Positions 6,461 through 24,140 of a stretch of 26,758 bases of DNA are shown here, one piece after another. Below the pieces are notes generated by a model. That model was not told where the DNA came from. It made no database searches and saw only the letters and a program-made list of their open reading frames with translations. Within the stretch, counting starts at the first letter, position 1, and each line of letters opens with the position of its first letter. A program made the position numbers and the translations under genes. Source of the DNA: Clostridiales bacterium (GTDB taxonomy: Bacteria; Bacillota; Clostridia; Christensenellales; Aristaeellaceae); NCBI GenBank assembly GCA_015056395.1, contig SVGK01000010.1:1-26758 (forward strand), read 5' to 3'.

Positions 6461-6904
6461 ATGAAACTTCAAGATCTGAAACCCGCCGTTGGCGCGACCA
6501 CCGCGCCCAAGCGCCTTGGACGCGGCGTTGGCTCCGGCCTGGGCAAGACTTCCGGCAAGGGCCACAAGGGCGCCAAGGCCCGTTCGGGCGGCGGCAAGCG
6601 TCCCGGATTCGAGGGCGGCCAGATGCCTCTCACCATGCGCCTTCCCAAGCGCGGCTTTACCAATAAGTTCCGCATCGAGTATGCCACTGTCAACGTCTCC
6701 CGCCTGGACGAGGTGTTCGAGGACGGCGCCGTGGTCACTCCCGTGGAGCTGATCCAGACCGGCATCCTGAAGAACGTGCAGGATGGCGTCAAGATCCTTG
6801 GCGACGGCGAGATCACCAAGAAGCTGACGGTGCAGGCGAACAAGTTCTCTGCATCCGCAAAGGAAAAGATCGAAGCAGCAGGCGGGAAAGCTGAGGTGAT
6901 CTGA
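6461..6904 (+). CDS. rplO: 50S ribosomal protein L15
   Basis: [37 protein letters not shown]... is a canonical L15. RBS AAGGAGG lies upstream. Confidence 0.95.
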
Positions 6905-6905
6905 G

Positions 6906-8189: not shown

Positions 8190-8199
8190 GCCGGGAGGT

Positions 8200-8850: not shown

Positions 8851-8853
8851 TTC

Positions 8854-9627: not shown

Positions 9628-9911
9628 AGATGTATCCGATAGAGCCGGGCAGCGTGGTCCGCTCCACGGCGGGGCGCGACCAGGGCAGGCTGTTCATCGT
9701 GGTGAGCCTGATCGACGAGGATTTTGCCTACGTCGCCAACGGAAAGCTCAGGACGATGGAACACCTGAAGAAGAAGCGCAGGAAGCATCTGAAGCCCACG
9801 GGGCATGTGGTCGGGGCGTTTGTCGAAAAACAGCGACAGGGAGAGCCTGTGCTGGATCATGAAATACGCGCGTGGTTGAAAGAGGAGGAAGAAAAGCTTG
9901 TCCAAGTCTGA
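9624..9911 (+). CDS. Small KOW-domain protein (YbzG-like), conserved between map and infA in Firmicutes
   Basis: The ATG at 9624 overlaps the map stop (ATGA). [29 protein letters not shown]... is KOW-like. The ORF-track frame 9477..9911 has a spurious N-terminal extension. Confidence 0.8.
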
Positions 9912-10119
9912 TGTCATCGAAGTGGATGGCGTTGTCACGGAGTCGTATCCGAACGCCATGTTTGAAGTACAGCTGCCCAACGGGCACAAGGTATTGGCAC
10001 ACGTCTCCGGCAAGATGCGCATGAACTACATACGCATATACCCCGGCGACAAGGTGAAGATAGAGCTCTCGCCCTACGATCTGACCCGCGGCCGGATCAC
10101 CTGGCGTTCCAAGAGCTGA
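9898..10119 (+). CDS. infA: Translation initiation factor IF-1
   Basis: [41 protein letters not shown]...RITWR is a canonical S1-like IF-1. It has a TTG start codon overlapping the end of the preceding gene. Confidence 0.94.
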
Positions 10120-10162
10120 GCGACGACGCAGGTCGATGAGTAAGTAAGGAGGCTTGTTACCG

Positions 10163-10276
10163 ATGAAAGTGAGACCTTCTGTGAAGCCCATGTGCGAGAA
10201 GTGCAAGATCATCAAGCGCAAGGGCCGCGTGATGGTGATCTGCGAGAACCCCAAGCACAAGCAGAAGCAGGGCTAA
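10163..10276 (+). CDS. rpmJ: 50S ribosomal protein L36 (zinc ribbon, 37 aa)
   Basis: Not in the ORF track (<60 aa). Translating 10163..10276 by eye gives [47 protein letters not shown] lies at 10146-10152. Confidence 0.93.
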
Positions 10277-10296
10277 GGGGACCGCGATAATACGGC

Positions 10297-10331
10297 AGCG
10301 CCGGACGAATGTCCGGCGCTCAAGTGTTTTT
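10297..10331 (+). terminator. Rho-independent terminator ending the ribosomal cluster
   Basis: Perfect 10-bp stem AGCGCCGGAC-gaat-GTCCGGCGCT at 10297-10320, followed by caagTGTTTTT. It sits between rpmJ and the convergent minus-strand gene. Confidence 0.8.
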
Positions 10332-10339
10332 GGGCCGGC

Positions 10340-11578
10340 TCAGCTTCGTACCGCCTTCTTCAGCTTCTTTGCGATGCGCGCAGGCAGCAGGTCGGCGTGC
10401 GCGATCATCGCGTCGAGCAGCATATCAGGCAGCGCGCGTATCTCGTCCAGGGACATTTCGTCCAGCGCCTCCGCCATCTCCGCAAAGGTATCCTCCGGTT
10501 CCGCGTTGTCAAGGTGCTCTCTCATGTCGTCCGCGGCCTCGTCCAACCGATCCAGATCGTCCGTGACGGTCAGGCGGATGTTCGCCCTGCGGCAGAACTC
10601 TTCGAACAGGCACTTCGCCTCGTTCGAACGGACCCTGATCTCCTTGGGGTATCTGTCCTCCAGGCTTTCGATGAAGTGGTCCAGCATCGCGTCGGCGTCG
10701 TATGAGGGGACATTGCTCAGATGGGACACGTTCACAAGTCCATCCTCGTCCACGGACATCAGCATCGCGGGGAGGAACGGCGGGTCGCCTTCTATGGGGT
10801 GCGGCAGGCGCAGTATGTCGCACTCGTACACGCCCCGTTGCCTGTGCTTCATGAGCTTGGCTATGGCGATGTCGTTGATGCGGGTCGGCGTCGCGGGGAC
10901 AGGTTCGGCGTAAGGCGGCAGGGGTATGCGCTCCTGCTTCAATTTCCCGTCGACGATCGAATACAGCGGTATCGTCACACGGTCGCCGGAGAGACTGTCG
11001 AAGAGCCCCATCTGTTCCGCACCGTAGCACTGGTCGTGCCGGCCGACCACCACAGGCCGCAGCCCGAGCGACGACTTGCCGTGCGCCTTGATCTCCTCGC
11101 TCAGCCTGATCGCCACCCTGAGCGCCGTTTCGAGGAAGGTCCAGTCGTCGTCCTCCACGATATACCAGGGCAGGCAGTGCGGCCTGAAGCGCTGGAAATC
11201 CGGATATGGCGCGCGGAAGGGGATCCCCGCCGCGCTGCAGTATTCTCTGAGCATGTCGAGCTCGTCCGGCGCGAACCGGTCCCTCTGTTCGATGGAGCAC
11301 TGTATGCAATCCTGGCTCAGCATGTCGTCCATGCTGCCGTACACAAAGTCAGGCCCCGGATCGACGACCTTGCGGTATGTCGTGAAGCCCTCCGCGCCGA
11401 CGTACACGGACAGCGCCATGTGCTCGCCAAGGCTGCCCATGACGCAGCAGTAGCCGATCTCGCCCTGCCCATCGTTTGAAGGTATCCTGACGGCGAACAG
11501 CTCTTCTTCCGAGAGCTGCTTCCAGACCTTCGACTTGCGAAAGGCGTAGCCAAGGTCCAGGTAACGGTGATCGATCAT
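10340..11578 (-). CDS. Hypothetical cytoplasmic protein (412 aa), last gene of a three-gene minus-strand operon
   Basis: Long ORF with coding-like composition. Its start lies 25 nt downstream of the SGNH hydrolase stop. No family recognised by eye. Acidic C-terminal region. Confidence 0.7.
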   Translation of the reverse strand: MIDHRYLDLGYAFRKSKVWKQLSEEELFAVRIPSNDGQGEIGYCCVMGSLGEHMALSVYVGAEGFTTYRKVVDPGPDFVYGSMDDMLSQDCIQCSIEQRDRFAPDELDMLREYCSAAGIPFRAPYPDFQRFRPHCLPWYIVEDDDWTFLETALRVAIRLSEEIKAHGKSSLGLRPVVVGRHDQCYGAEQMGLFDSLSGDRVTIPLYSIVDGKLKQERIPLPPYAEPVPATPTRINDIAIAKLMKHRQRGVYECDILRLPHPIEGDPPFLPAMLMSVDEDGLVNVSHLSNVPSYDADAMLDHFIESLEDRYPKEIRVRSNEAKCLFEEFCRRANIRLTVTDDLDRLDEAADDMREHLDNAEPEDTFAEMAEALDEMSLDEIRALPDMLLDAMIAHADLLPARIAKKLKKAVRS

Positions 11579-11602
11579 ATGTGACGCTCCTTGATGGTCT
11601 TA

Positions 11603-12259
11603 TCACGCGAGCATCTCGCGTATCTTTTCCGCCACGACGGGCGCGAGCTTCGCGTGGTCCGCCCTGGAATAGTGCAGCCCGTCGAAATCGTTGATCTCGA
11701 AGCCGAGCTCCGCACAGTCGATGAAGCCGCAGCCGTGCCTTTCGGCGATGTCGCAGTACAGCGCGCCAAGCTGCAGGCTCTTTTGATAGGCCTCGTCGCC
11801 GAAGCGCGATGCGCTCCTGAGCTTGCCGATGTCCGGATGCGTCGGCGCGGGCGCGATCAGCAGCACCTTGGGCGCGGGATAACCGTAATAGCGCTGTTCA
11901 CACTCCCGCACCAGCATGTCCATGCCCTTGGCGATCATGCCCGCGGAGAGGTTGAAGTGGCGCTTGAGCTCGTTGCAGCCCAGCTGCAGCACGGTCAGAT
12001 CCAGCGGCGCGTGCGCGTCCAGCGCGACCCTGAGGCCAGTGATGCCCCTGCGCAGCGGGAAGTAGGGGTCTTCGACCATGATCGTGCGTCCGTTCAGCGC
12101 GTCCGTGACGACGTCGAACCCGTCGCCCAGCAGCGCGCGCACACGCCCGGGCCAGTGCTCGTCCTCACGCATGCGCCTGCAGGTGTCGAGCTCGGGGATG
12201 TACTGCGTGTGGTCATAGCCCCAGGTGTTGGAATCGCCGAATATCAGTATGCGTTTCAT
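11603..12259 (-). CDS. SGNH/GDSL-family hydrolase (esterase/lipase-like)
   Basis: N-terminal GDSNTWG (block I serine). A GxND-like block. C-terminal DGLHYS (catalytic Asp-x-x-His). ATGA start/stop overlap with the upstream gene. Confidence 0.85.
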   Translation of the reverse strand: MKRILIFGDSNTWGYDHTQYIPELDTCRRMREDEHWPGRVRALLGDGFDVVTDALNGRTIMVEDPYFPLRRGITGLRVALDAHAPLDLTVLQLGCNELKRHFNLSAGMIAKGMDMLVRECEQRYYGYPAPKVLLIAPAPTHPDIGKLRSASRFGDEAYQKSLQLGALYCDIAERHGCGFIDCAELGFEINDFDGLHYSRADHAKLAPVVAEKIREMLA

Positions 12260-12756
12260 GTGCGGATCCCCTTCGCTTCGTCCAGCGCCTTGCGTATCAG
12301 CACGATCTTGCGCTCGTCCTGTTTGTGCTTGACGTTCTTTCGATAGCCGTCCTTTGAGGAAGCCTCATAAACCCTGAGATAATCGGGAAGCGTCAAAAGC
12401 CCATAACGCGCGCCCTTCTCCTCGACGATCGGTATTCTGGATATGTCCACGCCGGCGAAGGGCCCGAGGCTCTCCAGCGAAGCGAAGGCCACGCTGACGC
12501 CGTCCCTTTCGAAGGCGTGCTCCGAGTCGTCATACAGCGCATAGCCCAGCGCCGCCATGGCCCGGCTGAGCATGGGCCAGGCCTCGCGCAGCAGGCGTTC
12601 GGGGACCAGCACGTCCACGTCGTCCGCGTCGAGACTGCGGTCCAGGCGTTCCTCGAGCCCCAGCGAACCAAACAACAGCGGTTCGACGCCGAAGCCCTCG
12701 TTCAACATGCGCGCGACCTGCAAAAATGCCGCGCGTTTCGCGCCGTCAGCTCTCAT
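12256..12756 (-). CDS. Nucleotidyltransferase-fold protein (Pol-beta-like NTase superfamily, 166 aa)
   Basis: Motif LLFGSLGLEERLDRSLDADDVDVLV fits hG[GS]-x(9-13)-DxD. The ATG at 12756 is preceded by AGGAGG 5 nt upstream. The longer ORF-track start at 12876 has no RBS and would read through the upstream hairpin. Confidence 0.7.
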   Translation of the reverse strand: MRADGAKRAAFLQVARMLNEGFGVEPLLFGSLGLEERLDRSLDADDVDVLVPERLLREAWPMLSRAMAALGYALYDDSEHAFERDGVSVAFASLESLGPFAGVDISRIPIVEEKGARYGLLTLPDYLRVYEASSKDGYRKNVKHKQDERKIVLIRKALDEAKGIRT

Positions 12757-12792
12757 GCGTCCTCCTGCGTGCGAACATCCCATCGTCCTCCA

Positions 12793-13345
12793 CAGCGGCG
12801 GCCTCCGGGCCGCCACGCTGTCCATCCGTTCCAGTCTGCGGTCAGTTCGAGGCGAGGAACAGCTTCCAGTCCTCATCTGATATGGAAAACTTGTCGACGA
12901 TCTCCTCGTCCGACCAGCCGGTGGTCAGGCGCAGCTTGCGTATCGTGTCGAAGAGGCTGTTCAAGCGCCCCTCGGCGCGTCCTTCTTCGCGTCCCTCTCT
13001 ACGTCCTTCTTCGCGCCCTTCCTGATAGATATCTTCAATGATGCTGCACATTGCACGTACCCCGTGGCCCCTCCGCAGCGGCGGCCTCCAGGCCGCCACA
13101 CCATCGTCCGTTCCCGCCTGCAATCAGTCCGAGGCGAGGAACAGCTTCCAGTCCTCGCTCGATATGGAGAGCTTGTCGACGATCTCCTCGTCTGACCAGC
13201 CTGTGGTCAGGCGCAGCTTGCGGATCGTGTCGAAGAGGCTGTTCAGGCGCCCCTCGGTGCGTCCTTCTTTGCGTCCCTCTTCGCGTCCTTCTTCGCGTCC
13301 TTCTTCGCGCCCCTCCTGATAGATATCTTCCATGATCTTGCACAT
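12793..13345. repeat. Two tandem ~270-284-bp direct repeats (~88% identity) spanning the 3' end of the Rpn-type gene plus its downstream GGCGGCC-n4-GGCCGCC hairpin
   Basis: Copy 1 is ~12793-13060 and copy 2 is ~13077-13345. Both begin CAGCGGCGGCCTCCRGGCCGCCAC and contain ...CGAGGCGAGGAACAGCTTCCAGTCCTC... Confidence 0.85.
12842..13051 (-). pseudogene. Duplicated C-terminal fragment (~69 aa) of the adjacent Rpn/YhgA-type nuclease gene
   Basis: MCSIIEDIYQEGREEGRREGREEGRAEGRLNSLFDTIRKLRLTTGWSDEEIVDKFSISDEDWKLFLASN is ~85% identical to the last ~70 aa of the 13124..13996 product. It arises from a 284-bp tandem DNA duplication. Confidence 0.75.
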
Positions 13346-13996
13346 TTCAAGCGCCCCCTTTGGGTCGTCCTTATAATACCCGCTTCGTTCCGCCATCTCC
13401 TCGTACAGCATATCCCCGGGATCGCTGCACAGGAAATCGTGCATCAGCTTTCCCAGCGCGTCGTCGCCCCTGTACTGGCCGTTGACATACAGTATGTGTT
13501 CGCGGTCGTCGAAGGGCGCGCCGGTGCCCAGGTTGATGCGCTCGACCGGATAAAGCCCCTTCCCCATGCGGAACACGTCGTGCTCCGTGATGAATATGAC
13601 ATAGGTCTCCGGCAGCGCCCTGAAGGGCTGTCCCGCGCTCAGAGCTTCGATGTCCATCGCGGCTGAGTGGTACCGGGCGCGCTCCGGCTCGGCGCCCTCG
13701 TCCGCGCGCTGCACCTCGATGTCATACTGCCTGTGCTTGCTGTCCGTGGCGTGCACGTCCAGCGTCACGGACCGTGCGCCGGCCAGCCGCTTCATGTCGC
13801 GCTGCGTCTCCGCGCCGGTGAGCACCAGGTCGTCCTTGTCCAGTATGATCCTCAGCACGAACTGCGCAAACGGCAGATCGTCGCGGAACATGCAGCGCAT
13901 GAACACGTCGTCAATGGGACGCAGCTGCGCAAGCCGCGCAAGGCTCCGCTCCGTGAACTGCCTGCGCCAGGCCTCGTCGATGTTCATGGCGCACAC
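13124..13996 (-). CDS. Rpn/YhgA-like PD-(D/E)XK family recombination-promoting nuclease / putative transposase
   Basis: The D...IEVQ core (LDVHATDSKHRQYDIEVQRA) is typical of the transposase_31/PDDEXK families. The C-terminal EGREEGREEGREEGRKEGRTEGR repeats and the LNSLFDTIRKL...WSDEEI tail are hallmarks of this family. Confidence 0.75.
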   Translation of the reverse strand: MCAMNIDEAWRRQFTERSLARLAQLRPIDDVFMRCMFRDDLPFAQFVLRIILDKDDLVLTGAETQRDMKRLAGARSVTLDVHATDSKHRQYDIEVQRADEGAEPERARYHSAAMDIEALSAGQPFRALPETYVIFITEHDVFRMGKGLYPVERINLGTGAPFDDREHILYVNGQYRGDDALGKLMHDFLCSDPGDMLYEEMAERSGYYKDDPKGALEMCKIMEDIYQEGREEGREEGREEGRKEGRTEGRLNSLFDTIRKLRLTTGWSDEEIVDKLSISSEDWKLFLASD

Positions 13997-14162
13997 CTCC
14001 TCTGCTCCGAATCTATTATATCATGGATACGAACGGCGCGCAAGGTGTTCGCAGCGCGTTGCGTTTCGGTTAATTGCATTCGGATGGTATAGACCCCTTG
14101 AAATCAGCGTCCACATAGATTATACTAATGTAAATAGGTATGCCCTGAAGGAGAGTGAGCCC

Positions 14163-15923
14163 ATGAGCAAGTTCTTTATCGAATGCCCGGCCTGTCACCG
14201 CTACAGCCAGGCCTCCACGTCCCTGTTTGCCAGCCGGCGCATACGCTGCGCCTGCGGCTTCACCATCGACGTCAAGGCGGACCGCATCACCACGCGCGTC
14301 TGTCCGTCCTGCGGCAATTCCATCGCTTTCGACCAGGCGAAGGGCGCGACGGCGAAGTGCCCCATATGCAGGGCGCAGCTGCTCACGCCGGAGAGCATGA
14401 ACAGCCTGGTCACGTTCGCGTGCCGCACCTGCGGCTGCACGCTGCAGGCGAACAAGGGCGCGCAGCAGATCACGTGCCCCCTGTGCGACACGGTCAACGA
14501 CGTGCAGGCCGAGGTCAAGCTCGCGGCGCAGCGCGCGCAAGGCACGCCGCAGGTCATACGCTACGAGGGCGACAACATGACGTTCGTCTGGCGGCACCCC
14601 GCGACGGACTTCGTGATGGGCTCGCAGCTGATCGTGCACGAGAGCCAGGAGGCTCTGTTCTTCCGCAACGGCGAGGCGCTGGATTCGTTCCCAGCGGGAC
14701 GCTACACGCTCGAGACCGCGACGCTGCCGCGCATGAATGGCCTGCTGCCGCTGCCTGTGCAGGGACAGCCCTTCCACGCGGAGGTCTTCTTTGTCAACCT
14801 GACCACGCAGATGGGCATCAAATGGGGCACCAACAGCAAGGTCGGACTGTTCGACCCGGCCAGCGGCCTGCATGTGGAGCTGGGCGCGTCCGGCAGCTTC
14901 AACCTGCGCGTGACGGACCCGCGGCGGCTCGTGATCCGCCTGGTCGGCACCACGGACAGGCTGACGCAGGAGCAGGTGTTCGGGCACGACGGCGGCTACT
15001 TCCGCACGCTGGTCATGACGAAGGTCAAGGCGAACCTCGCGCGCGTGATCAGGGAGAACCGCATATCCGTGCTGGAGCTGGACCAGCACATCGACGTGAT
15101 CGGCGAGGCGCTGCGCACGCAGATCAACGCGGAGTTAGAGGAATACGGCATGACCATGCCTGAGTTCTACGTCGCCAACATACTGACGCCGGACGACGAC
15201 CCGAACTTCAGGCGCATGAAGCAGCAGCACGCGGAGCTCTACCTGCGCACGCGCGAGGAGGAGATCCGTAAGGCCGAGGCGGAGGCGGCGTTCGAGCGCA
15301 AGGCGGTCGAGGCGCAGACGCAGGCGCGCATGAAGGTGATCGGCGCGCAGGGCGAAGCCGACGCCATGCGCATACAGGCGCAGGCCCAGGCGGACGCCTA
15401 CCGCATGCAGGCGGAGGCGGAGGCGCAGGAGATGCGCATGAAGGGCTACACCTACCAGCAGGAGACGACGCGCCAGGTCGCCACGGAGGCGGTCAAAAAC
15501 GGCGGCGCGGGCGGCTTGGCCGGCGACGTGACGGGCGTGCTGGGTGGCGCGATGCAGCTGGGCCTCGGCCTGGGCGCGGCCGGCAGCGTGATCGGCATGA
15601 CGAAGGACGCGCTGGGCGCGATGAACGCGGCCGTGCCGCAGGCGCCCGCCGCGACGGACGACGGCTGGACGTGCGAGGGCTGCGGCTGCACGGGCAACAC
15701 GACGAACTTCTGCCCGAACTGCGGGCGGCGGCGGCCCGAGGCAGGCTGGACGTGCCCGGGCTGCGGGCAGGCGGGCATCACGACGAACTTCTGTCCGAAC
15801 TGCGGGAGGCGACGGCCCGAGGCGGGCTGGACGTGTCCCGGCTGCGGGCTCACGGGCATCACGACGAACTTCTGTCCGAACTGCGGCGCCAAGAAGGGTG
15901 AGAAGGGAGATGTCGAGGGATGA
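14163..15923 (+). CDS. SPFH/Band-7 (YdjI-like, Band_7_1) domain protein fused to multiple zinc ribbons
   Basis: RBS GAAGGAGAG at 14148-14156, then ATG at 14163; the ORF-track start at 13650 is an unsupported extension. The N-terminus has three CxxC...CxxC pairs. The central segment (IRYEGDNMTFVWRHPATDFVMGSQLIVHESQEALFFRNGEALDSFPAGRYTLETATLP...FHAEVFFVNLTTQMGIKWGT) resembles B. subtilis YdjI-type SPFH. An A/E/Q-rich coiled coil, a Gly-rich linker, and three GWTCPGCG..TTNFCPNCG zinc-ribbon repeats follow. Confidence 0.8.
   Translation: MSKFFIECPACHRYSQASTSLFASRRIRCACGFTIDVKADRITTRVCPSCGNSIAFDQAKGATAKCPICRAQLLTPESMNSLVTFACRTCGCTLQANKGAQQITCPLCDTVNDVQAEVKLAAQRAQGTPQVIRYEGDNMTFVWRHPATDFVMGSQLIVHESQEALFFRNGEALDSFPAGRYTLETATLPRMNGLLPLPVQGQPFHAEVFFVNLTTQMGIKWGTNSKVGLFDPASGLHVELGASGSFNLRVTDPRRLVIRLVGTTDRLTQEQVFGHDGGYFRTLVMTKVKANLARVIRENRISVLELDQHIDVIGEALRTQINAELEEYGMTMPEFYVANILTPDDDPNFRRMKQQHAELYLRTREEEIRKAEAEAAFERKAVEAQTQARMKVIGAQGEADAMRIQAQAQADAYRMQAEAEAQEMRMKGYTYQQETTRQVATEAVKNGGAGGLAGDVTGVLGGAMQLGLGLGAAGSVIGMTKDALGAMNAAVPQAPAATDDGWTCEGCGCTGNTTNFCPNCGRRRPEAGWTCPGCGQAGITTNFCPNCGRRRPEAGWTCPGCGLTGITTNFCPNCGAKKGEKGDVEG
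15657..15899 (+). repeat. Three near-perfect 81-bp (27-aa) tandem repeats inside the SPFH gene, each encoding one C4 zinc ribbon
   Basis: GGCTGGACGTG recurs at 15663, 15744 and 15825 with an exact 81-nt period. The encoded units are GWTC[EP]GCGxxGxTTNFCPNCGRRRPEA. Confidence 0.9.
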
Positions 15924-16579
15924 AGAACGGTAAGGGCCATTTCCTTGCGCTTTGGGCCATCGCGCTGGCGCTGTTCGTGGTGCTGGCGCTGGCGATACCT
16001 TTTGCGCGGACGCCGGTGTACTGGATCGGCTTTTGCGCGACGCTTTTGATGTTCGCCGTAGTGACGGCGGCATTCATGCGCGCGTTCAGGGACGGGCGGT
16101 CGCTCGAGAGCGCGCTGCTGGGCTGGCCCATATTCAAGTGCGGCGCACTGGCGCTCGGCGCGCAGCTGATCGCGGGCTTTGCGCTGATGGCGCTGGCGCG
16201 CGCGCTCGGCGTCACCGCGGCTGTGGTGATCGAGATCGTGCTGTTCGGCTGCGCGGCGGCGGTGCTGGTCGCGCGGGACGCGGCGCGCGCCGCTGTCGAG
16301 CAGACGGAGGCGCGCGTGCGGGATGACACCGGCGCGTGGAAGGCACTGCGCGCGCAGGCGAGCGCGTTCGCGGCGGCGGCCGGCAGCGACGCGGCGCGCA
16401 AACTCGCCGACGACATACGCTTTGCGGACCCGAGGCCCACGGACATGGACGGCGATATCGCGCAGGCCGTGGGCGCGCTGGGCGCGGACGCGGCGGACGA
16501 GGATATCGAGCAGGTCAGAAAGATGGTCGGAAGGAGAAACGCGCTGGCGAAGGCGGGGAAGAAGGAAATGCAGAATTGA
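15920..16579 (+). CDS. Small membrane protein (about 4 TM helices, Ala-rich cytoplasmic C-terminus), translationally coupled to the SPFH gene
   Basis: ATGA overlap with the upstream stop (15920-15923). Hydrophobic segments are HFLALWAIALALFVVLALAI, VYWIGFCATLLMFAVVTAAF, GALALGAQLIAGFALMALA and AAVVIEIVLFGCAAAVLV. Confidence 0.75.
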   Translation: MKNGKGHFLALWAIALALFVVLALAIPFARTPVYWIGFCATLLMFAVVTAAFMRAFRDGRSLESALLGWPIFKCGALALGAQLIAGFALMALARALGVTAAVVIEIVLFGCAAAVLVARDAARAAVEQTEARVRDDTGAWKALRAQASAFAAAAGSDAARKLADDIRFADPRPTDMDGDIAQAVGALGADAADEDIEQVRKMVGRRNALAKAGKKEMQN

Positions 16580-16613
16580 TAATTCAGAATTCAGAATTAA
16601 GAATTAAGAATGG
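16580..16613. repeat. AT-rich heptamer microsatellite (AATTCAG x2, AATTAAG x2) directly after the stop codon
   Basis: taATTCAGAATTCAGAATTAAGAATTAAGAATgg contains two EcoRI sites. It is an AT island in an otherwise >65% GC context. Confidence 0.7.
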
Positions 16614-16664
16614 ATAGCCCGGAGACCCGAACGTGCGGGTCCCCCGCAATGCCCCGAACGACCT

Positions 16665-17655
16665 CGTAGCGGTGGCGTCTACGCCGCCATATCCCTCGCC
16701 ATTCCCGCCAGGGAATGCGAAACGACCGAAGGACCTCATCCGGCCCTCACGGGCCACCTTCCCCAAAGGGCAACGCTGTCAACTTTGAACAAGGACATAA
16801 CAAATCATAGATATACGTCGTCCAGCGGGAATGGCGGCTGATAGCCGCCGCTACGGATCACATGATCTGCAAATGTAACCGCATAAACGGCACGGGATCG
16901 TCTTAAGTTGACAGCGTTGCCCCAAAGGGGAAGGCAAGGTCCGCCATTCAATATACGATCCGCCGTCGTACCTCGCCCATCGGTCCCGAGGACGATGATC
17001 AACAGACAAAGAGACGATCGGCCCACGAATGTACCCATATCACAGCTCGGCACGCCCGATCCTCGCCCGGAGCGGCGTCCTGTCGACGCCGTCTCCGCGA
17101 CAAAACCTCGAGCCGTCCGCTCCTATCCGACCTTGATCCCCGAGCTGACGTGGCCCGTTGGACCGCGTACAGCACAGCCACCGCGCCGAAGGCGCGGCGC
17201 GAAGCGTCCTTGAGGGTCCTCATGCTGTCTGCTAAACTGAAGCACACGGCGGCGTGATAAGGTTTCGTTTCCAACCTCTCACCCGTCGCCGTGGCCTCAT
17301 ACAAGCAGACAGCAGGAGGTTCATCAAGGATGGCGGCCGGACGAGGTATCCGTCCCCCCCAACGACCCCGTAGCGGCGGCTATCAGCCGCCACATCCCTC
17401 GCCATTCCCAACAGACAAGCCGAAACGACCGAAGGACCTCATCCGGCCCTCACGGGCCACCTTCCCCAAAGGGCAACGCTGTCAACTTAAGGCGATCCCG
17501 TTTTGGTTGTGCAGCTACATCTGCAGATCGTGTGATCCGTAGCGGCGGCTATCAGCCGCCATTTCCGACGCACAACGTATACCCGTGATTTGTTATGGTC
17601 TTGTTAAAAGTTGACAGCGTTGCCCCAGAGGGGAAGGCAAGGTCCGTCATTTGAA
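16665..17655. mobile_element. Non-coding MITE-like composite repeat: ~115-bp inverted arms (16827-16943 and 17455-17566) around a ~500-bp core, with extra partial copies on both sides
   Basis: The left arm and the reverse complement of the right arm align at ~85% (GGAATGGCGGCTGATAGCCGCCGCTACGGATCACAYGATCTGCA...CTTAAGTTGACAGCGTTGCCC...). Direct repeats 16665-16786 and 17369-17488 share an identical 66-bp block at 16721-16786 and 17424-17488. There is a further fragment at 17609-17652. The only ORFs here are spurious GC-frame ORFs. Confidence 0.6.
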
Positions 17656-17791
17656 TACAAGATCGACCGCACCCCCCAGAATCACGGCCAGCGTTCGATC
17701 TCCGGCCAATAATTCCGAAACACCCGGAGGGTGTCTAGCGAAGCGTCGATTCCGAATTACCCCATCCCCCCACGACCAAAGGAGCAACACC

Positions 17792-20700
17792 ATGATCATC
17801 TTCAAATGCAAATCCTGCGGCGGCGACCTGTCCTTCGAGCCGGGCGCGAGCGTCGCGGAATGCCCCTACTGCGGCGTGAAGCAGACGCTGCCGAAGCTGG
17901 ACGACGACAAGCGCGCGAACCTCTACGACCGCGCCAACCACTTCCGCCGCCAGAACGAGTACGACAAGGCCATGGCGATCTACGAGCAGATACTGTCCGA
18001 GGACCGCACGGACGCCGAGGCGTACTGGTCGCTGGTGCTGTGCCGCTACGGCATAGAGTACGTCGAGGACCCCGTTACGCGCAAGCGCGTGCCCACGGTC
18101 AACCGCGCGCAGTACGCCTCCGTGCTGGCGGACGACGACTACAAGTCGGCGCTTCAATACGCGGACCCTGCGCAGCGCGTGCTCTATGAATCGGAGGCGG
18201 AGGCCATCGCGGAGATACAGCGCGGCATATTGGACATCTCGCGCAAGGAGCAGCCCTTCGACGTGTTCATCTGCTACAAGGAGACGGACGCGAACGGCCG
18301 CCGCACGCCGGACAGCGTGCTGGCGACGGACCTGTACCACCAGCTGACGAAGGAGGGCTTCCGGGTATTCTTCTCGCGCATCACGCTGGAGGACAAGATC
18401 GGCACGGCGTACGAGCCGTACATATTCGCGGCGCTGAACAGCGCGAAGGTGATGGTGGTGCTGGGCACGAAGCCGGAGTACTTCAACGCGGTGTGGGTGA
18501 AGAACGAGTGGAGCCGCTACCTTGCGCTGATACGCGCGGGCGCGGAGAAGGTGCTGGTGCCCGCGTACCGCGACATGGACCCCTATGACCTGCCGGAGGA
18601 GTTCGCGCACCTGCAGGCGCAGGACATGGGCAAGCTGGGCTTCATGCAGGACCTGATACGCGGCATCAAGAAGCTGACCGCGAAGGACGATCCGAAGCCC
18701 GCGCGGCCCGCAGCGCAGACCGTGGTCGCGGGCCCCGGCGCGAACATAGAGAACCTGATGAAGCGCGCGCGGCTCTTCATGGAGGACGGCAACTGGATGA
18801 GCGCCACGGAGTACCTGGACAAGGTGCTGGACGAGAATGCCGAGTACGCGCCCGCCTACGCGGGCAAGGTGCAGGTCTCGCTGCGCATGAAGCGGGAGGC
18901 CGAACTGGCCGGGAGCCTCACGGACTACGAAGGCGACCCCGACTGGCAGAGGGCGCTGCGCTTTGCCGCGCCCGAACAGCGGAAGGTTTACGAGGGGTAC
19001 GCGGCGCAGGCGGCGGAGGCGCGGGAGGAGAAGCGCAAGGAAGACATCTATGCCGGAGCGGCCGCCATGCTCGCAAAGGCCGATACGCCCGCCGCGTGCC
19101 GCGCGGCGAAGGCGGAATTTGCGAAGATCCCGCTGCACAGGGACGCGGGCGCGAAGGTGCGCGAGTGCGAGGAGAAGGCGAGGCGCATCGAATACGACGC
19201 GCTCCTCACCAGATACAAGGACGTGGCCAGGGACTATAACAGCGTCTCAAAGGCCGAGAGGCTTGAGGCGCTTGCGGCGGAGTTCGATGCGTTCAGGGGC
19301 ACCGACATGCCCGGGCGCTGCCGCGCGGAGGCGGAGCAGTGCCGCGCGGCGCTCTATGACGAGGCCGCCGAGGCCATGCGGAAGAGCGCGCAGGCACAGC
19401 AATTCGAAAAGGCGGCGGAGCTGTTCAGACGGCTGGGCGCCTACAGGGACGCGCAGGCGCAGGCGCGAAAGTGCTCGGACAGCGCGGCGGAAGTCAAACG
19501 CGCCGACGAGCTGCGCGCCGCGCGTGAACGCGAGGAGCAGGAGCGCAGGATAGAGAAGGAGCGCGCCAGACAGAAGAGGAACAGGGTGCTCCTGTCGTTG
19601 CTGGTGCTCGTGCTGGCGGCGGGCGCGCTGGCCTATCTGTACGTGCTGAAGCCCATGATGGCCTATGACAAGGCGGTTGGGGCGATGGAGGCGGGAAACT
19701 ACGACGAGGCGACGGCGCTGTTTGAAGAGATGGGAGACTACAGGGACGCCGCTGTACAGGCGCAGGAGAGCCAATACAGGAAGGGTCTGTCGTTGATGAA
19801 CAGCGGAAAATACGATGCGGCTGTAGAGGTGTTCAACAGTATCGGCAGTTACGGCGATAGTTCCGCAAAGGCAAAACAGGCACAGGCAGACAAATTGTTT
19901 GATGCGGGATATTACGCCGAAGCGTATGCGGCATACATCGCATTGGATTCGGAGTATCAAACACATAAAGACGATTACGAGCAGATGTACGTCGATGCAT
20001 CGAGGCTGTTTGCGGATGGTGATTATGATGGCGCCAGCATGGCGTTTAATTCGATCGCGGGATACAAGGATTCAACAACACAGGCAAAGGAGAGCCAATA
20101 CCAGAAGGGCCTGTCGTTGATGAACAGTGGGCAATATGATGCAGCTGTAGAGGTATTCAACAGTATCAGCAGTTACGGCGATAGTTCTACGAGAGCAAAA
20201 CAGGCACAGGCAGATGAATTGTTTGCTGCGGGGAATTACGCCGAAGCATATATGGTTTACGCCGCATTGGATACGGGATATCAAACACACAAAGACGATT
20301 ACGAGCAAATGTACGTCGATGCATCGAAGCAATTTGCGGATGGTGATTATGACGGCGCCAGCAAGGCGTTTAATTCAATTGCAGGATACAAGGATTCAGT
20401 AACACAGGCAAAGGAGAGCCAGTACCAGAAGGGCCTGTCGTTGATGAACAGCGGGCAATATCATGCAGCTGCGGTGGCATTCAAGAGCCTTGGCAGTTAC
20501 AACGACGCCGCGACACAAGCGCAGGAGAGCCAGTACCAGAATGGCCTGTCGTTGATGAAAATTGGGCAATACGATGCGGCTGTGGAGGTATTCAAGAGCC
20601 TTGGCAGTTACAACGACGCTGCGACACAGGCGCAGGAGAGCCAATATCGGAAAGGCATGTCGTTGATGGAGAGCGAGGAGTATGATGCGGCTACGGAGGT

Positions 20701-21484
20701 GTTCGATGGCCTCAGTAATTACAACGACGCCGCGACAAAAGCGCAGGAGAGCCAGTACCTGAAGGCGGCGGCGCTGAACACAGCGGAGAATTACGATGAA
20801 GCTTATCTGGTCTATGCGTCCATAGCCGGCTATAAGGATGTTGACAGCATCGTCAAAAACGACGGTAATATTTCAGCAGCAGCCTGGCGCGCGCAGTTAT
20901 ACGTCGGCAATACGGTGACCTTCGGCGCGTACGACCAGGACGGCGATACCTCAAACGGCGCGGAGGCCATCGAATGGATCGTGCTGGCGAACGACGGCAA
21001 GACGGCGACGCTGATTAGCAGATACGGTCTGGACGCGAAGCCCTACAACACTGAACAAGAATATGTGACCTGGGAGACATGCACGCTGCGGAAATGGCTG
21101 AACGGCGATTTCCTGAACGCGGCCTTTTCGGCGGACGAGAGGGCGAAGCTTGAAACGGTCAAGGTCACGGCGGACAGGAATCCCAAGAATTTTATCGATC
21201 CCGGCAACGACACGCAGGACAAGGTCTTCCTGCTGTCCATAGACGAGGCGAACAAGTATTTCAGCTCTGATTCGGACCGCATGTGCAAGCCCACGAAGAC
21301 GGCAGTCAAGAATGGAGCAAGCACGAACAGCTCGGGTGCGTGCTGGTGGTGGCTGCGGTCGCCCGGCTACTATCCTAGCCTCGTCGCATACGTCCGCGAC
21401 GACGGTTCGGTCTACTACGACGGCTGCGGTGTCTACAACGGCGATCTCGCTGTTCGGCCGGTCGTGGTGCTGCGGCTTTCATAG
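17792..21484 (+). CDS. Large single-pass membrane protein (1230 aa): N-terminal zinc ribbon, TPR-like region, TIR domain, helical repeat region, TM helix, ~12 degenerate 37-38-aa extracytoplasmic repeats, DUF6273-like C-terminal domain
   Basis: RBS AAAGGAG at 17778-17784 and ATG at 17792 (MIIFKCKSCGGDLSFEPGASVAECPYCG); the ORF-track start at 17651 is an unsupported extension. The TIR region at ~18254-18680 reads QPFDVFICYKETD...EGFRVFFS...VMVVLGTKPEYFNAVWVKNEWSRYLAL, with the conserved W-x3-E at 18494-18508. The TM helix RVLLSLLVLVLAAGALAYLYVL lies at ~19585-19650. Repeats fit the pattern G.Y.DA..QA.ESQY.KG. The C-terminus (TVTFGAYDQDGD...IEWIVLANDGKTATLISRYGLD...VTWETCTLRKWLN...KVFLLSIDEA...ACWWWLRSPG...AVRPVVVL) matches my recollection of DUF6273. 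Confidence 0.8.
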   Translation: MIIFKCKSCGGDLSFEPGASVAECPYCGVKQTLPKLDDDKRANLYDRANHFRRQNEYDKAMAIYEQILSEDRTDAEAYWSLVLCRYGIEYVEDPVTRKRVPTVNRAQYASVLADDDYKSALQYADPAQRVLYESEAEAIAEIQRGILDISRKEQPFDVFICYKETDANGRRTPDSVLATDLYHQLTKEGFRVFFSRITLEDKIGTAYEPYIFAALNSAKVMVVLGTKPEYFNAVWVKNEWSRYLALIRAGAEKVLVPAYRDMDPYDLPEEFAHLQAQDMGKLGFMQDLIRGIKKLTAKDDPKPARPAAQTVVAGPGANIENLMKRARLFMEDGNWMSATEYLDKVLDENAEYAPAYAGKVQVSLRMKREAELAGSLTDYEGDPDWQRALRFAAPEQRKVYEGYAAQAAEAREEKRKEDIYAGAAAMLAKADTPAACRAAKAEFAKIPLHRDAGAKVRECEEKARRIEYDALLTRYKDVARDYNSVSKAERLEALAAEFDAFRGTDMPGRCRAEAEQCRAALYDEAAEAMRKSAQAQQFEKAAELFRRLGAYRDAQAQARKCSDSAAEVKRADELRAAREREEQERRIEKERARQKRNRVLLSLLVLVLAAGALAYLYVLKPMMAYDKAVGAMEAGNYDEATALFEEMGDYRDAAVQAQESQYRKGLSLMNSGKYDAAVEVFNSIGSYGDSSAKAKQAQADKLFDAGYYAEAYAAYIALDSEYQTHKDDYEQMYVDASRLFADGDYDGASMAFNSIAGYKDSTTQAKESQYQKGLSLMNSGQYDAAVEVFNSISSYGDSSTRAKQAQADELFAAGNYAEAYMVYAALDTGYQTHKDDYEQMYVDASKQFADGDYDGASKAFNSIAGYKDSVTQAKESQYQKGLSLMNSGQYHAAAVAFKSLGSYNDAATQAQESQYQNGLSLMKIGQYDAAVEVFKSLGSYNDAATQAQESQYRKGMSLMESEEYDAATEVFDGLSNYNDAATKAQESQYLKAAALNTAENYDEAYLVYASIAGYKDVDSIVKNDGNISAAAWRAQLYVGNTVTFGAYDQDGDTSNGAEAIEWIVLANDGKTATLISRYGLDAKPYNTEQEYVTWETCTLRKWLNGDFLNAAFSADERAKLETVKVTADRNPKNFIDPGNDTQDKVFLLSIDEANKYFSSDSDRMCKPTKTAVKNGASTNSSGACWWWLRSPGYYPSLVAYVRDDGSVYYDGCGVYNGDLAVRPVVVLRLS
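19766..20413 (+). repeat. Two tandem 324-bp (108-aa) intragenic direct repeats (~88% identity) within the extracytoplasmic repeat region of the TIR protein gene
   Basis: GAGAGCCAATAC recurs at 19766, 20090 and 20414 with an exact 324-nt spacing. This stretch (~19690-20830) has visibly lower GC (~50%) than the 5' half of the gene (~70%). Confidence 0.85.
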
Positions 21485-21607
21485 TCAAATCGTTAATCTT
21501 TACTCTTCAAATCCTCTGGCGTGCAAGCGCCATGATCCCGGCAGTGCCGCGAACAGACCTTATCCTGCAGGAGCGAGAATCATTGAGTACAAAGAGGTGA
21601 ACAGAAT

Positions 21608-22492
21608 ATGAACGGAAGACCAGGCATCCTCTTTCTCGGCAACGGCATCAACCGACTGTTCAATGACGATCCGTGGGACAAGATGATCCGCGACCAGCTC
21701 GCCCTGTCGGGCCATCGCTACACGTGGGAACAGATCAGGAACATACCGCCCACGATGCAGATCGTACTTGCGACGAACGATCAGGTCGACGCCCGCCTCA
21801 AGCAGATCGCAAAGGAGCTGGAACAACAGCGCATACAGGACGAACGCGCCGCTTTCCTGCGCAGGCTCGCCGGTATGGATGTCGACTGCGTAATGACGGC
21901 GAATTATTCTCTCGAGATCGAAAAGGCATTCGGGCTGAAGGAAAGCTGCGCCTCCTACAGGCGGCGCCTGAACAGGACCATCGAAGCAAACGGCCTGCGC
22001 GACGATTTTCGTCTGTACCAATATTATCCCCTCGAGCGGGCGGACGGAAGGACGATGCCGCTTTGGCACGTGCACGGCGACATCGCGAAGCCTCGCTCCA
22101 TGATCATGGGCCATTACTACTACGCAAGGCATCTGCGCGAGATACAGGACCGCGTCGGCGTTATGATGCGCGTCGTTCGGGGCTGTGAACGGGCCGGCTC
22201 GACGTTCCATCCGCAAAGCTGGGTCGATGCGTTTCTGATAAGCGACGTGTTCATGCTCGGCTTTGGGCTGTATCTGTGTGAGTCCGATTTGTGGTGGCTG
22301 CTCTGCTGCAAGAAGCGCAACTTCCCCGATACGAAGGTGTTCTTCTACGGCGAGGCGACGAATGATGTCCGGCTGCTGCTGGAGGCCTATGGCGGCGAAA
22401 CGCAGGACGAGATCAGCCGGATCGGAGAAGACGGCTATATGCGCTTTTATGAAAGGGCGATCGCGGATATCGAACGAAAGCTGGAACATTAG
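21608..22492 (+). CDS. Stand-alone SIR2-like (SIR2_2 / DSR-ThsA-type sirtuin fold) protein, 294 aa, no additional sensor domain
   Basis: The N-terminal ILFLGNGINRLFNDDPWDKMI fits the SIR2_2 consensus lFlGAGxS...PxW..L. VMTANYSLEIEKA fits TTNYDxLlE (catalytic Asn retained). LWHVHGDIAKPRSMIMGHYYY fits iyKlHGs...lvlt.edY (catalytic His retained). DVFMLGFGLYLCESDLWWLL fits llfiGYSl.D. RBS AAAGAGGTG lies upstream. The gene is 124 bp downstream of, and co-directional with, the TIR gene. Confidence 0.65.
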   Translation: MNGRPGILFLGNGINRLFNDDPWDKMIRDQLALSGHRYTWEQIRNIPPTMQIVLATNDQVDARLKQIAKELEQQRIQDERAAFLRRLAGMDVDCVMTANYSLEIEKAFGLKESCASYRRRLNRTIEANGLRDDFRLYQYYPLERADGRTMPLWHVHGDIAKPRSMIMGHYYYARHLREIQDRVGVMMRVVRGCERAGSTFHPQSWVDAFLISDVFMLGFGLYLCESDLWWLLCCKKRNFPDTKVFFYGEATNDVRLLLEAYGGETQDEISRIGEDGYMRFYERAIADIERKLEH

Positions 22493-22574
22493 TTGGATGT
22501 CCAGAGGGACAAGGACCGCGATCCTGCATGATCGGTGTCATTGATGTATGTCCTGCCCATGCCCTCAATAACGT

Positions 22575-23545
22575 ACCACCGTAGGGACGCCCCATGGGGC
22601 GTCCGCGTGCCCGATCCCGGCACGCACCGCGCAACGTCTTTACGAACCGCATCCCGTAGGGACGCCATTCATGGCGTCCGCCGCGCGTGAGCGCACCGTT
22701 ATCCGTTTCCCCGCAGGGCGCGTTTTCCCCGCGATCCGCCATTGCGGACACACGCAGGGGGAACGTGGCGGCGTAGACGCCGCCGCTACGGATGTTGTTA
22801 TATCACTTGAAGGATGGCGGACAAGGCGCGGCAAGCAACGCTCCTGCGGCGACACATCGCCGCCATTCCGTACACCGACCGTCCTGTCGCCCACGCCGCA
22901 CAGAGCATGACCCTCCGTAGGGACGCCCCATGGGGCGTCCGCGTGCCCGATCCCGGCACGCACTGCGCAACGTCTATACGAACCACATCCCGTAGGGGCG
23001 CCATCCATGGCGCCCGCGCCCTCATCCCGGCATGAACCGCGCAACATCCACACGAAACCGCATCCCGTAGGGACGCCATTCATGGCGTCCGCCTGCGCGT
23101 GAGCGCACCGTTATCCGTTGCCCTACAGGACGCATATCCCCCGCGATCTGCCATCATGAACACGGGGCACGTGGCGGCGCAGACGCCGCCGCTACGGGTG
23201 TTGTTATATATCACCTAACGATGGGGGCGGATGGGGCGCGGCAAGCGACGACCCTGCGGCGACACATCGCCGCCATTCCGTACACCGACCGCCCTGTCGC
23301 CCGCGCCGCACAGAGCATGACCCTCCGTAGGGACGCCCCATGGGGCGTCCGCGTGCCCGATCCCGGCACGCACTGCGCAACGTCTATACGAACCACATCC
23401 CGTAGGGGCGCCATCCATGGCGCCCGCCCGCGCGTAAGCGCACCGTTATCCGTGGCCTCCCAAGGCGCATATCCCCCGCGATCCGTCATCACGAGCGCGG
23501 GGGAACGTGGCGGCGCAGACGCCGCCGCTACGGGTGGTGTTCTTG
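22575..23545. repeat. Three tandem non-coding units (~330, ~420, ~230 bp), each with a perfect 20-bp palindrome GGACGCCCCATGGGGCGTCC, a second palindrome GGRCGCCATYCATGGCGYCC ~75 bp later, and a GTGGCGGCG-yAGA-CGCCGCCGCTACGG hairpin
   Basis: Palindrome A occurs at 22585, 22919 and 23339. Palindrome B or variants occur at 22660, 22995, 23080 and 23413. The CGCCGCCGCTACGG hairpin occurs at 22773-22800, 23171-23198 and 23507-23535. Sequence between the palindromes is itself repeated, so these are not CRISPR spacers. Confidence 0.8.
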
Positions 23546-23603
23546 GACCACCTTTCGCATTTGCGAGCAACGAGTGGTGGATGAGGGCGCAGCATTTTAC
23601 ATG

Positions 23604-23645
23604 AGGGCCTGTTCCCTTCGCGAGAGGGAACGGGCCCTTTTCTTA
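23604..23645 (+). terminator. Stem-loop GGGCCUGUUCCCU-ucgcgag-AGGGAACGGGCCC followed by TTTTCTTAT; terminator-like, first of two near-identical copies
   Basis: 13-bp stem with one G-U pair plus a T-tract on the + strand. It lies immediately 3' of the minus-strand SWIM gene stop (23648), so it is probably bidirectional. The second copy is at 24097-24140. Confidence 0.55.
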
Positions 23646-23983: not shown

Positions 23984-24096
23984 GGGGATGCACTTCCTTT
24001 CTGGTCGATGCGGTTATGAGGTGCATATCAGCTTTCGAACGGTGATGTATAATAGAAATGCAAATCGGACAAGTGGTGTTGGCTGATTTTGCATGT

Positions 24097-24140
24097 GGGC
24101 CTGTTCCCTTCGCGAGAGGGAACGGGCCTTCTTATTTCTT
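24097..24140 (+). terminator. Second copy of the GGGCCTGTTCCCTTCGCGAGAGGGAACGGGCC stem-loop plus TTCTTATTTCTT, abutting the stop of the minus-strand secreted-protein gene
   Basis: Identical 32-bp hairpin and similar flank (ATTTTRCATGWG upstream) to the copy at 23604. Confidence 0.5.

Follow-up and report, generated by a model that had tools for sequence, protein, structure and literature searches.

A putative surface-sensing TIR receptor of Clostridia, predicted to join a constant cytoplasmic head to exchangeable outer domains

To our knowledge, those bacterial TIR immune proteins that have been characterised detect infection from within the cell, and the bacterial TIR domains characterised so far are NADases or signal synthases, not adaptor scaffolds. 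C-type-lectin sensors diversified by diversity-generating retroelements (DGRs) have been described as fused or linked to TIR, CHAT or kinase effectors in the conflict systems of multicellular bacteria (Kaur et al., 2020, PMC7159879; Doré et al., 2024, PMC10907252; Vallota-Eastman et al., 2020, PMC7517822). DUF6273 is a C-type-lectin-like DGR target with its variable region (VR) at the C-terminus (PMC10743442; PMC11792537; bioRxiv 10.1101/2024.10.15.618418). Both kinds of domain occur in a single protein encoded on contig SVGK01000010.1 of a Clostridiales bacterium, of which the 26.8 kb analysed here is called the window. The layout of this protein resembles that of an animal Toll-like receptor, with a TIR domain inside, one transmembrane (TM) helix, and a stalk and lectin outside. 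We put the chance that it serves conflict or defence as a surface-sensing TIR receptor at about one half.

The receptor gene starts at the ATG at 17792, which is the start common to all homologues (motif M..FKCK.CGG), and its open reading frame (ORF) ends at 21484 on the + strand. A longer ORF with a TTG start at 17651 was rejected; every homologue begins at M..FKCK.CGG. The features of the gene and of its product (residues numbered in amino acids, aa) are as follows.

17792..21484, + strand: TIR receptor gene, 1230 aa, predicted type-II membrane protein (ORF, Pfam, topology and homologues)
17792..17887, + strand: C4 zinc ribbon, aa 1–32, with C6, C9, C24 and C27 (conserved cysteines; beta hairpins in the model)
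17906..18247, + strand: "head" of a helical/TPR hairpin and a beta-hairpin, aa 39–152 (Pfam TPR, model, invariant residues)
18263..18631, + strand: TIR domain, aa 158–280, with candidate catalytic Glu E239 in WVKNEW (Pfam TIR_2)
18740..19531, + strand: cytoplasmic TPR-like helical repeats, aa 317–580 (model, hidden Markov model (HMM), Foldseek)
19103..19168, + strand: marginal cytoplasmic repeat unit, aa 438–459 (HMM)
19391..19474, + strand: cytoplasmic unit homologous to the extracellular ones, aa 534–561 (HMM)
19586..19648, + strand: single TM helix, aa 599–619, N-in/C-out (Kyte-Doolittle hydropathy, Lys/Arg asymmetry)
19676..20878, + strand: 11 extracellular TPR-like repeats, aa 629–1029 (repeat analysis; GC content at third codon positions, GC3)
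20879..21481, + strand: DUF6273 with C-type-lectin-like fold, modelled over aa 1030–1230, Pfam match aa 1073–1227 (Pfam, AlphaFold2)
21341..21466, + strand: DGR-type VR, aa 1184–1225, CWWWLRSPG...AVRPVV (aligns to template repeats of related loci)

Hydropathy analysis revealed only one hydrophobic segment, at aa 599–619, with a Kyte-Doolittle value of 2.44 over 19 aa and all others at or below 1.1. The 15 residues before this segment contained eight Lys/Arg and the 15 residues after it two, and no hydrophobic signal sequence was present at the N-terminus of the 1230-aa protein. The position of the TM segment was conserved in 114 of 120 homologues. Hydropathy and the positive-inside rule, together with the missing signal sequence, indicate an N-in/C-out orientation, with the N-terminal half probably cytoplasmic and the C-terminal half probably outside the cell.

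Within the N-terminal half, C9, C24 and C27 of the zinc ribbon were invariant and C6 nearly so (51–142 homologues), and Pfam TPR_1/TPR_2 matched aa 44–73 at about 1e-9. Many further TPR-type Pfam matches were spread over aa 625–1000. The AlphaFold2 model of aa 1–625 had a mean confidence score (pLDDT) of 78.5. The zinc ribbon and the helical head were mostly well predicted, with a pLDDT of 80–94 across most of aa 39–152, a region dense in invariant residues; the cytoplasmic TPR-like repeats (aa 317–580) reached a pLDDT of about 95, and a long helix led into the TM segment. A Foldseek search with this cytoplasmic model returned TPR proteins only, matched through the TPR part, because the second half of the TIR domain (aa 198–280) was modelled at a pLDDT of only 32–48. 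The preliminary description of this DNA, made from the letters and their ORFs, had seen a receptor-like molecule here, and that picture is supported, with a cytoplasmic zinc ribbon and TIR domain, one TM helix, outer repeats and DUF6273. Its suggested modelling gave confident TPR repeats and DUF6273 and the weak TIR half just mentioned, while the TM helix it placed at residues ~598–620 was recovered as a strong segment at aa 599–619 that obeys the positive-inside rule. It had also raised the question of whether the TIR region might better fit another Rossmann or flavodoxin-like fold, and TIR families were the only ones that the region matched.

The TIR domain was recognised by Pfam TIR_2 (PF13676) over aa 158–280, with an E-value of 7e-11 and 43.1 bits against a gathering score of 28. 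The sole PDB sequence match of aa 140–300 was the TLR15/TLR2 TIR structure 7ylf_A (E 2e-4), in whose alignment E239 of the motif WVKNEW pairs with the Glu of TLR WCQYE. Alignment A2 showed no variation at E239, and conservation of this residue was at least 90% in alignments A3 and A4. What is established for SARM1 and for plant and bacterial TIR domains suggests that E239 is the counterpart of their catalytic Glu in the alpha-C region (WxxxE context), and thus a candidate NADase catalytic residue. Matches to the TIR proteins of Thoeris were weak, with 28.6 bits for ThcB4 against a cut-off of 220 and a PADLOC E-value of 0.011 for ThsB1.

The protein belongs to a very large family. A word-indexed protein search gave at least 8000 close relatives at E ≤ 1e-10; nearly all of the 120 relatives listed had TIR_2 and TPR, and most also had DUF6273. 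An exhaustive HMMER search with aa 1–300 retrieved 7144 representatives of 50%-identity clusters, 4043 of which had E ≤ 1e-30, and the best 150 representatives were 53–86% (mostly 60–86%) identical over residues 1–300. Among contigs from one genome per species, at least 580 stretches encoded a relative, with heads 71–79% identical, and the main carriers were Oscillospiraceae, Lachnospiraceae, Acutalibacteraceae, Anaerovoracaceae and other gut and rumen Clostridia. Cultured carriers include Anaerotignum sp. MSJ-24 (L017) and Ruminococcaceae bacterium YRB3002 (L007). The architecture had first been called unusual, which does not agree with a head shared by 4043 clusters (E ≤ 1e-30) and at least 580 species; the sole name met for the family in the sources was "DUF6273 domain-containing protein". 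The head had no match in phage or plasmid collections, and a phage or plasmid origin was rejected on that ground and on the lack of any tRNA or Rfam match in the window.

The part following the head differed widely among relatives. In a set of 142 new cluster representatives a TM segment was found in 127, and DUF6273 in only 28. The 57 representatives lacking DUF6273 by Pfam all carried TIR_2 (57/57), together with BspA-type LRR_5 (13), LRR_8 (5), RCC1_2 (5), Flg_new (3) and, once each, PASTA, YARHG and an ECF-type multi-pass domain. The leucine-rich repeat (LRR) motifs of these sister proteins were located after the TM helix, so that their layout is LRR outside, TM helix, and TIR inside. Seen across these sequences, the protein is a constant head joined to variable tails. 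Receptor paralogues often occurred several per locus among the related loci (labelled L0xx). Concerted evolution of heads among tandem paralogues was rejected as a general rule: high identity was occasional, in one pair of L025 (90% nt) and one pair of L051 (89% aa), and the other pairs were 51–65% identical at the protein level.

The DUF6273 domain at the outer end is a C-type-lectin fold, modelled very confidently over aa 1030–1230 (pLDDT 96.7) and matched over the cut-off by Pfam PF19789 at aa 1073–1227 (E 7e-28). The window VR, aa 1184–1225, reads CWWWLRSPGYYPSLVAYVRDDGSVYYDGCGVYNGDLAVRPVV, and its scaffold matches the template repeats (TRs) of related loci, which encode CWWWLRSPGNNQNNAANVNNDGSVNYNGNNVNNDNDAVRPAL. 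All 14 of the 14 TR-Asn (AAY) positions are NNY codons in the window VR, and entropy across homologues was 3.17 bits at the TR-Asn positions versus 1.11 bits at the other VR positions. The last 42 residues thus carry the scaffold and the codon signature of a DGR-written variable region.

Comparison of the last 260 nt of each homologous gene with its own locus revealed TRs in several relatives, and the mismatches between TR and VR fell at TR adenines in 21/21 cases in L009, 16/17 in L004, 19/20 in L061, 24/26 in L028 and 18/21 in L046. In L020, one TR (12853–13000) pairs with the VRs of two tandem paralogues (6046–13000), with adenine-only mismatches; no intact reverse transcriptase (RT) follows that TR. 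The ORFs flanking the TR of L004 were identified by Pfam as bAvd (8e-10) and RVT_1 (5e-22), and the proteins of this locus served as tblastn queries for Avd and RT in the other loci. Full cassettes of target gene, Avd, TR and RT were found in L004, L009, L028 and L061; L020 and L046 had Avd and TR and missed the RT by tblastn. Decayed Avd/RT fragments lie beside receptor genes in L044 (13785–14573), L058 (13724–13958) and L025 (11165–11290), which are DGR cassettes at differing stages of decay.

The receptor gene is also a compositional mosaic. GC3 was 0.85–0.97 through codon 640, comparable to that of the housekeeping references SecY (0.90) and Adk (0.89), dropped to 0.38–0.6 over codons 660–880, a foreign codon composition within most of the extracellular repeats, and rose to 0.7–0.85 in the lectin domain; the SIR2-like gene downstream had a GC3 of 0.755. 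A contig from another sample (ENA ERZ27248377; locus L081, 1–4144) was 96.5% identical at the nucleotide level to window positions 17451–18718, that is, to the upstream region and codons 1–309. Beyond codon 309, L081 has an unrelated low-GC3 tail that also ends in DUF6273, and a Y1 (IS200/IS605) transposase gene follows that tail. Together, the GC3 mosaic and L081 imply that tails are replaced through recombination, and the difference between L081 and the window looks like an allelic tail replacement. The breakpoints lie at the end of the head or within the repeat array, and we infer that the repeats on either side of the TM helix are plausible recombination substrates.

Over aa 629–1029 the extracellular array comprises nine repeats of 37 aa plus two 34-aa variants, giving 11 units in place of the roughly 12 repeats of 38 aa counted at first. 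Its DNA contains a tandem duplication of 324 bp in 2.3 copies at 86% and a second tandem series of 111 bp in 3.2 copies at 82%; the array has expanded recently through tandem duplication. The same type of repeat had been reported on both sides of the membrane, and this stands for one of the two cytoplasmic copies named. An HMM built from the window's extracellular units alone scored cytoplasmic aa 537–560 at 13.4 bits, a score reached by 0/2000 shuffles in each of two sets (maxima 6.5 and 7.9), and an HMM built from the extracellular units of homologues gave 18.0 bits for aa 534–561, where shuffles peaked at 8.4. The second copy, FAKIPLHRDAGAKVREC at aa 438–459, scores 6.0 bits, a marginal value that exceeds the 95th percentile of shuffles without reaching their maximum. 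Among the 120 homologues listed, most had at least one cytoplasmic unit at 8 bits or more (up to 27.8), which makes the cytoplasmic copy a feature of the family. Kinship of the repeats across the TM helix was weak at the DNA level (62-nt and 44-nt families). A partial duplication across the TM segment, as suggested in the preliminary description, is possible; the compositional break sits within the extracellular array and points to recombination inside the repeats.

The surroundings of the gene were compared by clustering the ORFs of 79 related loci, and three families proved conserved: the receptor, an SPFH protein and a membrane protein (MEM). The neighbouring features of the window are the following.

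14163..15923, + strand: SPFH/Band_7_1 protein, 586 aa from M172 of a long ORF, with zinc ribbons at both termini (Pfam Band_7_1 1.3e-36; DZR)
15920..16579, + strand: MEM, 219-aa membrane protein with hydrophobic stretches in the N-terminal half (homologues in related loci)
16580..17791, no strand: slot between MEM and the TIR gene, 1212 bp, repeat-rich, without a credible ORF
21608..22492, + strand: SIR2_2/AbiH-like protein, 294 aa, 124 bp after the receptor gene (SIR2_2 E 7e-5)

The start of the SPFH gene was set at 14163 on the basis of an AAGGAG ribosome-binding site and a promoter-like site at 14098–14126, and its stop overlaps the start of MEM (ATGA). The SPFH protein has three near-identical C-terminal zinc ribbons (WTC.GCG..G.TTNFCPNCG) and several N-terminal CxxC pairs; MEM had no Pfam or NCBIfam match. 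Homologues of SPFH were present on the same strand in 58 of the 79 loci and homologues of MEM (~232 aa) in 54, where SPFH always precedes and the TIR gene always follows them. Of the 54 loci whose upstream sequence spans at least 3.5 kb, 37 show the genes in the order SPFH, MEM, receptor. The receptor is the last member of a conserved operon of SPFH, MEM, an optional accessory gene and the TIR receptor. A promoter and terminator scan gave counts near chance expectation and so informs the operon boundaries little. The preliminary description contained neither these operon partners, nor the horizontally swapped tail cassette seen in the GC3 mosaic and L081, nor the reading of DUF6273 as a DGR-type C-type lectin with a VR signature.

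The accessory gene occupies the slot between MEM and the receptor, which is empty (11–60 bp) in about 20 loci. In other relatives the slot holds one or two tightly packed genes of defence type and of unrelated families, among them a stand-alone TIR (TIR_2, 1e-20), DUF2971, DUF4365 (1.6e-12), HEPN pEK499_p136 (down to 8e-7) and HEPN RiboL-PSP (6e-14) together with a SIR2-like gene; zinc-ribbon membrane proteins occur there as well. A slot-gene pseudogene at 16580–17791 of the window was rejected: tblastn with all slot proteins found nothing, and the region consists of repeats. The zinc-ribbon richness of SPFH is unusual, and its receptor partner likewise begins with a zinc ribbon. A tyrosine recombinase of about 280 aa (L004 6095–6952: Phage_integrase 2.6e-25, XerA-like) lies directly upstream of SPFH in 13 of the 79 loci and might mediate cassette exchange or inversion; the window has none.

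The 294-aa protein downstream of the receptor had a partial SIR2_2 match as its only Pfam hit, at 23.4 bits against a gathering score of 24.5, and a weak LmuA match. A relative in L085 exceeded the AbiH and SIR2_2 gathering scores, making AbiH the closest named family. That relative starts 13 bp after a 1290-aa BspA-type LRR protein (L085 2065–6876), a second case of a large surface-repeat protein paired with a SIR2/AbiH-type effector. Adjacency of the SIR2-like gene to a TIR receptor was found only in the window and the nearly identical strain L080, in L055 and in L039. Four metagenomic relatives of the SIR2-like protein had no detectable TIR-receptor gene on their contig, three of these contigs being short. 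The SIR2/AbiH-like gene is an accessory and not a conserved partner.

Several other elements were seen in the window. Direct copies 703 bp apart lie in the slot (16683–16785/17386–17488 and 16905–16948/17608–17651), along with a 155-nt inverted repeat (16768–16922 versus 17471–17625), and a unit of ~335–410 bp is present three times downstream, within 22480–23550. A GC-rich palindrome, CGTAGCGGYGGCG..GCCGCCA, is common to 16580–17791 and 22480–23550, and these noncoding repeats, which flank the pair of receptor and SIR2-like genes, look like REP- or MITE-like elements. Two 51-nt direct copies (23594–23644 and 24086–24136), 90% identical and 492 bp apart, both hold a strong hairpin, GGGCCTGTTCCC..GGGAACGGGCCC. 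A PD-(D/E)XK family transposase-like ORF (13124–13996, – strand; PDDEXK_2, 4.8e-8) lies just upstream of the over-long call of the SPFH ORF and overlaps it, and a 412-aa protein with DUF7309 (2e-26) and DUF6930 (2e-17) is encoded at 10340–11578 (– strand). Positions 1–9627 contain part of a ribosomal protein operon (S3, L5), SecY, adenylate kinase and methionine aminopeptidase, core genes that place the locus on a chromosome.

If the protein is a surface sensor that acts in conflict or defence, its lectin tip, carried by the TPR stalk, would bind a ligand outside the cell, with phage particles or other foreign surfaces as the most plausible candidates. Ligand binding would cluster the receptors, possibly in an SPFH scaffold tethered by MEM, and bring the cytoplasmic TIR domains together, which could then cleave NAD+ or make a nucleotide signal. 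This output would arrest the cell directly or via accessory effectors, for which the downstream SIR2/AbiH-like protein is a candidate here and the HEPN, TIR, DUF4365 and DUF2971 proteins of the slot are candidates in relatives. A more ambitious version, which we put forward tentatively and hold to be clearly less likely than the receptor reading itself, makes the family a bacterial counterpart of Toll-like receptors and its DGR-linked members anticipatory antigen receptors, with a repertoire of membrane receptors that share one constant zinc-ribbon/TIR head, outer domains (lectin, LRR, RCC1) swapped by recombination and, in the lectin type, hypermutated by a retroelement, and phage or foreign surfaces detected outside the cell before genome entry. 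TIR NADase or signalling chemistry, organised by an SPFH scaffold, would then set off arrest or accessory effectors (HEPN, SIR2/AbiH, TIR, DUF4365).

A number of observations weigh against a receptor of this kind. The family is known from sequence only, and its proposed function is inferred. PADLOC detected no known defence system and gave only weak hits to ThsB1 (0.011) and PDC-S66 (0.006). The second half of the TIR domain (aa 198–280) was modelled at a pLDDT of 32–48, which leaves the fold and active-site geometry of the domain provisional. The SIR2-like neighbour is rarely linked to receptor genes (2 of 79 related loci), and the slot genes could be independent cargo at a permissive insertion site. 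No TR was found in the window, where 21001–21520 has no second copy across the 26.8 kb, and RT and Avd were absent by tblastn with the L004 proteins; a DGR inside the window was rejected on these grounds. Moreover, the VR is identical in strain L080 (99.5% DNA identity), and there is no sign of current diversification at the window locus. With TR, Avd and RT lacking in the window and the same VR in L080, the window copy is probably an orphan target whose tip was frozen from past diversification or horizontal import, and a TR or DGR may lie elsewhere in the genome. The window copy is an ordinary family member without an active DGR in cis. Finally, the SPFH partner recalls the YdjGHI envelope-stress module of Bacillus subtilis, which is non-immune (PMC8581546).

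That likeness leads to the strongest competing explanation, which we nevertheless regard as unlikely: a complex for envelope stress or membrane organisation, of the YdjG/YdjH/YdjI type. In it, MEM and the zinc-ribbon membrane protein, here with TIR and lectin domains added, would bring the soluble SPFH protein to the membrane; the lectin tip would attach to wall polymers of the cell itself, and the TIR domain would serve solely as an oligomerisation scaffold, with no role in immunity. Like YdjI, the SPFH protein is of the Band_7_1 type with C-terminal zinc ribbons and no TM helix; YdjI depends on the membrane proteins YdjG and YdjH (PMC8581546), and translation of the cloning primer for YdjG gives MIISYKCPNC, which opens a zinc ribbon much as MIIFKCKSCGG does here. 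The tight linkage of the SPFH, MEM and receptor genes across Clostridia and the chromosomal setting of the family, without matches in phage or plasmid collections, fit such a complex as well. However, no PspA-like gene was present among the Pfam-scanned neighbours, and hypervariation by DGRs, swapping of ectodomains, the conserved TIR Glu and the HEPN, TIR, SIR2 and DUF4365 genes of the slot would be left unexplained.

Slightly less probable still is a surface adhesin, whose lectin tip on a TPR stalk would bind host mucus, food particles or other cells, the cytoplasmic part only anchoring it or regulating its display. Most cellular DGR targets have been described as proteins that are anchored in the membrane and bind substrates outside (Roux et al., 2021, PMC8144416), tails made of DUF6273, LRR_5 (BspA), Flg_new or RCC1 are of a kind typical for adhesins, and DUF6273 also occurs in a secreted IgA protease. 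Yet the 300-aa cytoplasmic head is the most conserved part, at 60–86% identity in clusters less than 50% identical overall, which would not be expected of a passive anchor; in addition, the TIR domain retains its candidate catalytic Glu, and the operon partners and slot genes are not accounted for by adhesion. As for a Thoeris-like pair, in which a ThsB-like TIR signal would activate a downstream ThsA-like SIR2 protein and deplete NAD+, a SIR2_2-like gene does lie 124 bp after the TIR gene on the same strand, TIR and SIR2-like genes pair again in L080, L055 and L039, and ThsB1 and ThcB4 give weak matches. We consider it very improbable, as Pfam revealed neither a SLOG nor a Macro sensor domain in the 294-aa protein, the pairing is confined to 2 of 79 loci, and the ThcB4 match of 28.6 bits is far from its cut-off of 220. 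With so few linked loci, and with four metagenomic relatives that show no detectable receptor gene on their mostly short contigs, a TIR and SIR2 pair was rejected as the core system.

If the surface-sensing receptor reading is true, the cell exterior would be sensed through an exchangeable and sometimes hypermutable ectodomain and reported to a TIR domain, a new sensing logic for prokaryotic immunity or signalling with a striking parallel in animal Toll-like and antigen receptors. The function of the family bears on phage–host and host–microbe interactions in the gut microbiome, and DGR biology gains a class of cellular target with an obvious signalling output. Were the immune reading wrong, the SPFH/MEM partnership, the accessory slot and the clear signs of tails swapped at a fixed breakpoint would stay as testable findings.

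No description of this Clostridial family was found in the literature searched, whose coverage was limited, so that the absence is no proof. A TM-anchored constant TIR head with SPFH and MEM partners, an accessory slot and exchangeable ectodomains that include LRRs is apparently undescribed. The DGR conflict systems come close in that a hypervariable lectin, as presumed antigen sensor, is coupled to TIR. They differ in using STAND, MoxR or vWA NTPase modules and FGE-sulfatase-type lectins, whereas no NTPase domain was detected in the receptor; they occur in cyanobacteria and proteobacteria, with many targets predicted to be cytoplasmic, whereas the receptor occurs in gut and rumen Clostridia with DUF6273 outside on a TPR stalk. 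They also differ in partners, which here are SPFH and a small membrane protein, the TIR domain being located in a constant N-terminal zinc-ribbon head. The DUF6273 targets of phage and bacterial DGRs (tentaclins and the Mtd-like proteins of Faecalibacterium phages; PMC10743442; PMC11792537) have the same lectin, a C-terminal VR and AAY-rich TRs, but are receptor-binding proteins of phage tails or head decorations without membrane anchor or TIR domain, unlike the chromosomal, anchored receptor with its predicted signalling module.

In Thoeris, too, a TIR protein adjoins a SIR2-family protein; however, ThsA is a SIR2 (or TM) effector with a SLOG or Macro signal-binding domain and its pairing with ThsB is conserved, whereas here no such domain was detected, the pairing is not conserved, and the TIR protein is a 1230-aa membrane receptor. 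The PspA-YdjGHI system of B. subtilis (PMC8581546) likewise combines a soluble SPFH protein of the Band_7_1 type, which ends in a C-terminal zinc finger, with two membrane proteins, one of them bearing a zinc ribbon, and the membrane partners may be alike in description only; in contrast to that system, no PspA was found among the Pfam-scanned neighbours, and the receptor adds TIR, TPR and lectin. Toll-like receptors have an LRR ectodomain, a type I orientation and a C-terminal TIR, whereas the receptor has TPR and lectin, a predicted type II orientation and an N-terminal TIR, and nothing supports a common descent of the whole architecture. The likeness, which would be one of analogy only, lies in the overall plan of repeats or a ligand-binding domain outside, a single TM helix, and TIR in the cytoplasm, and the sister proteins even carry LRR ectodomains.

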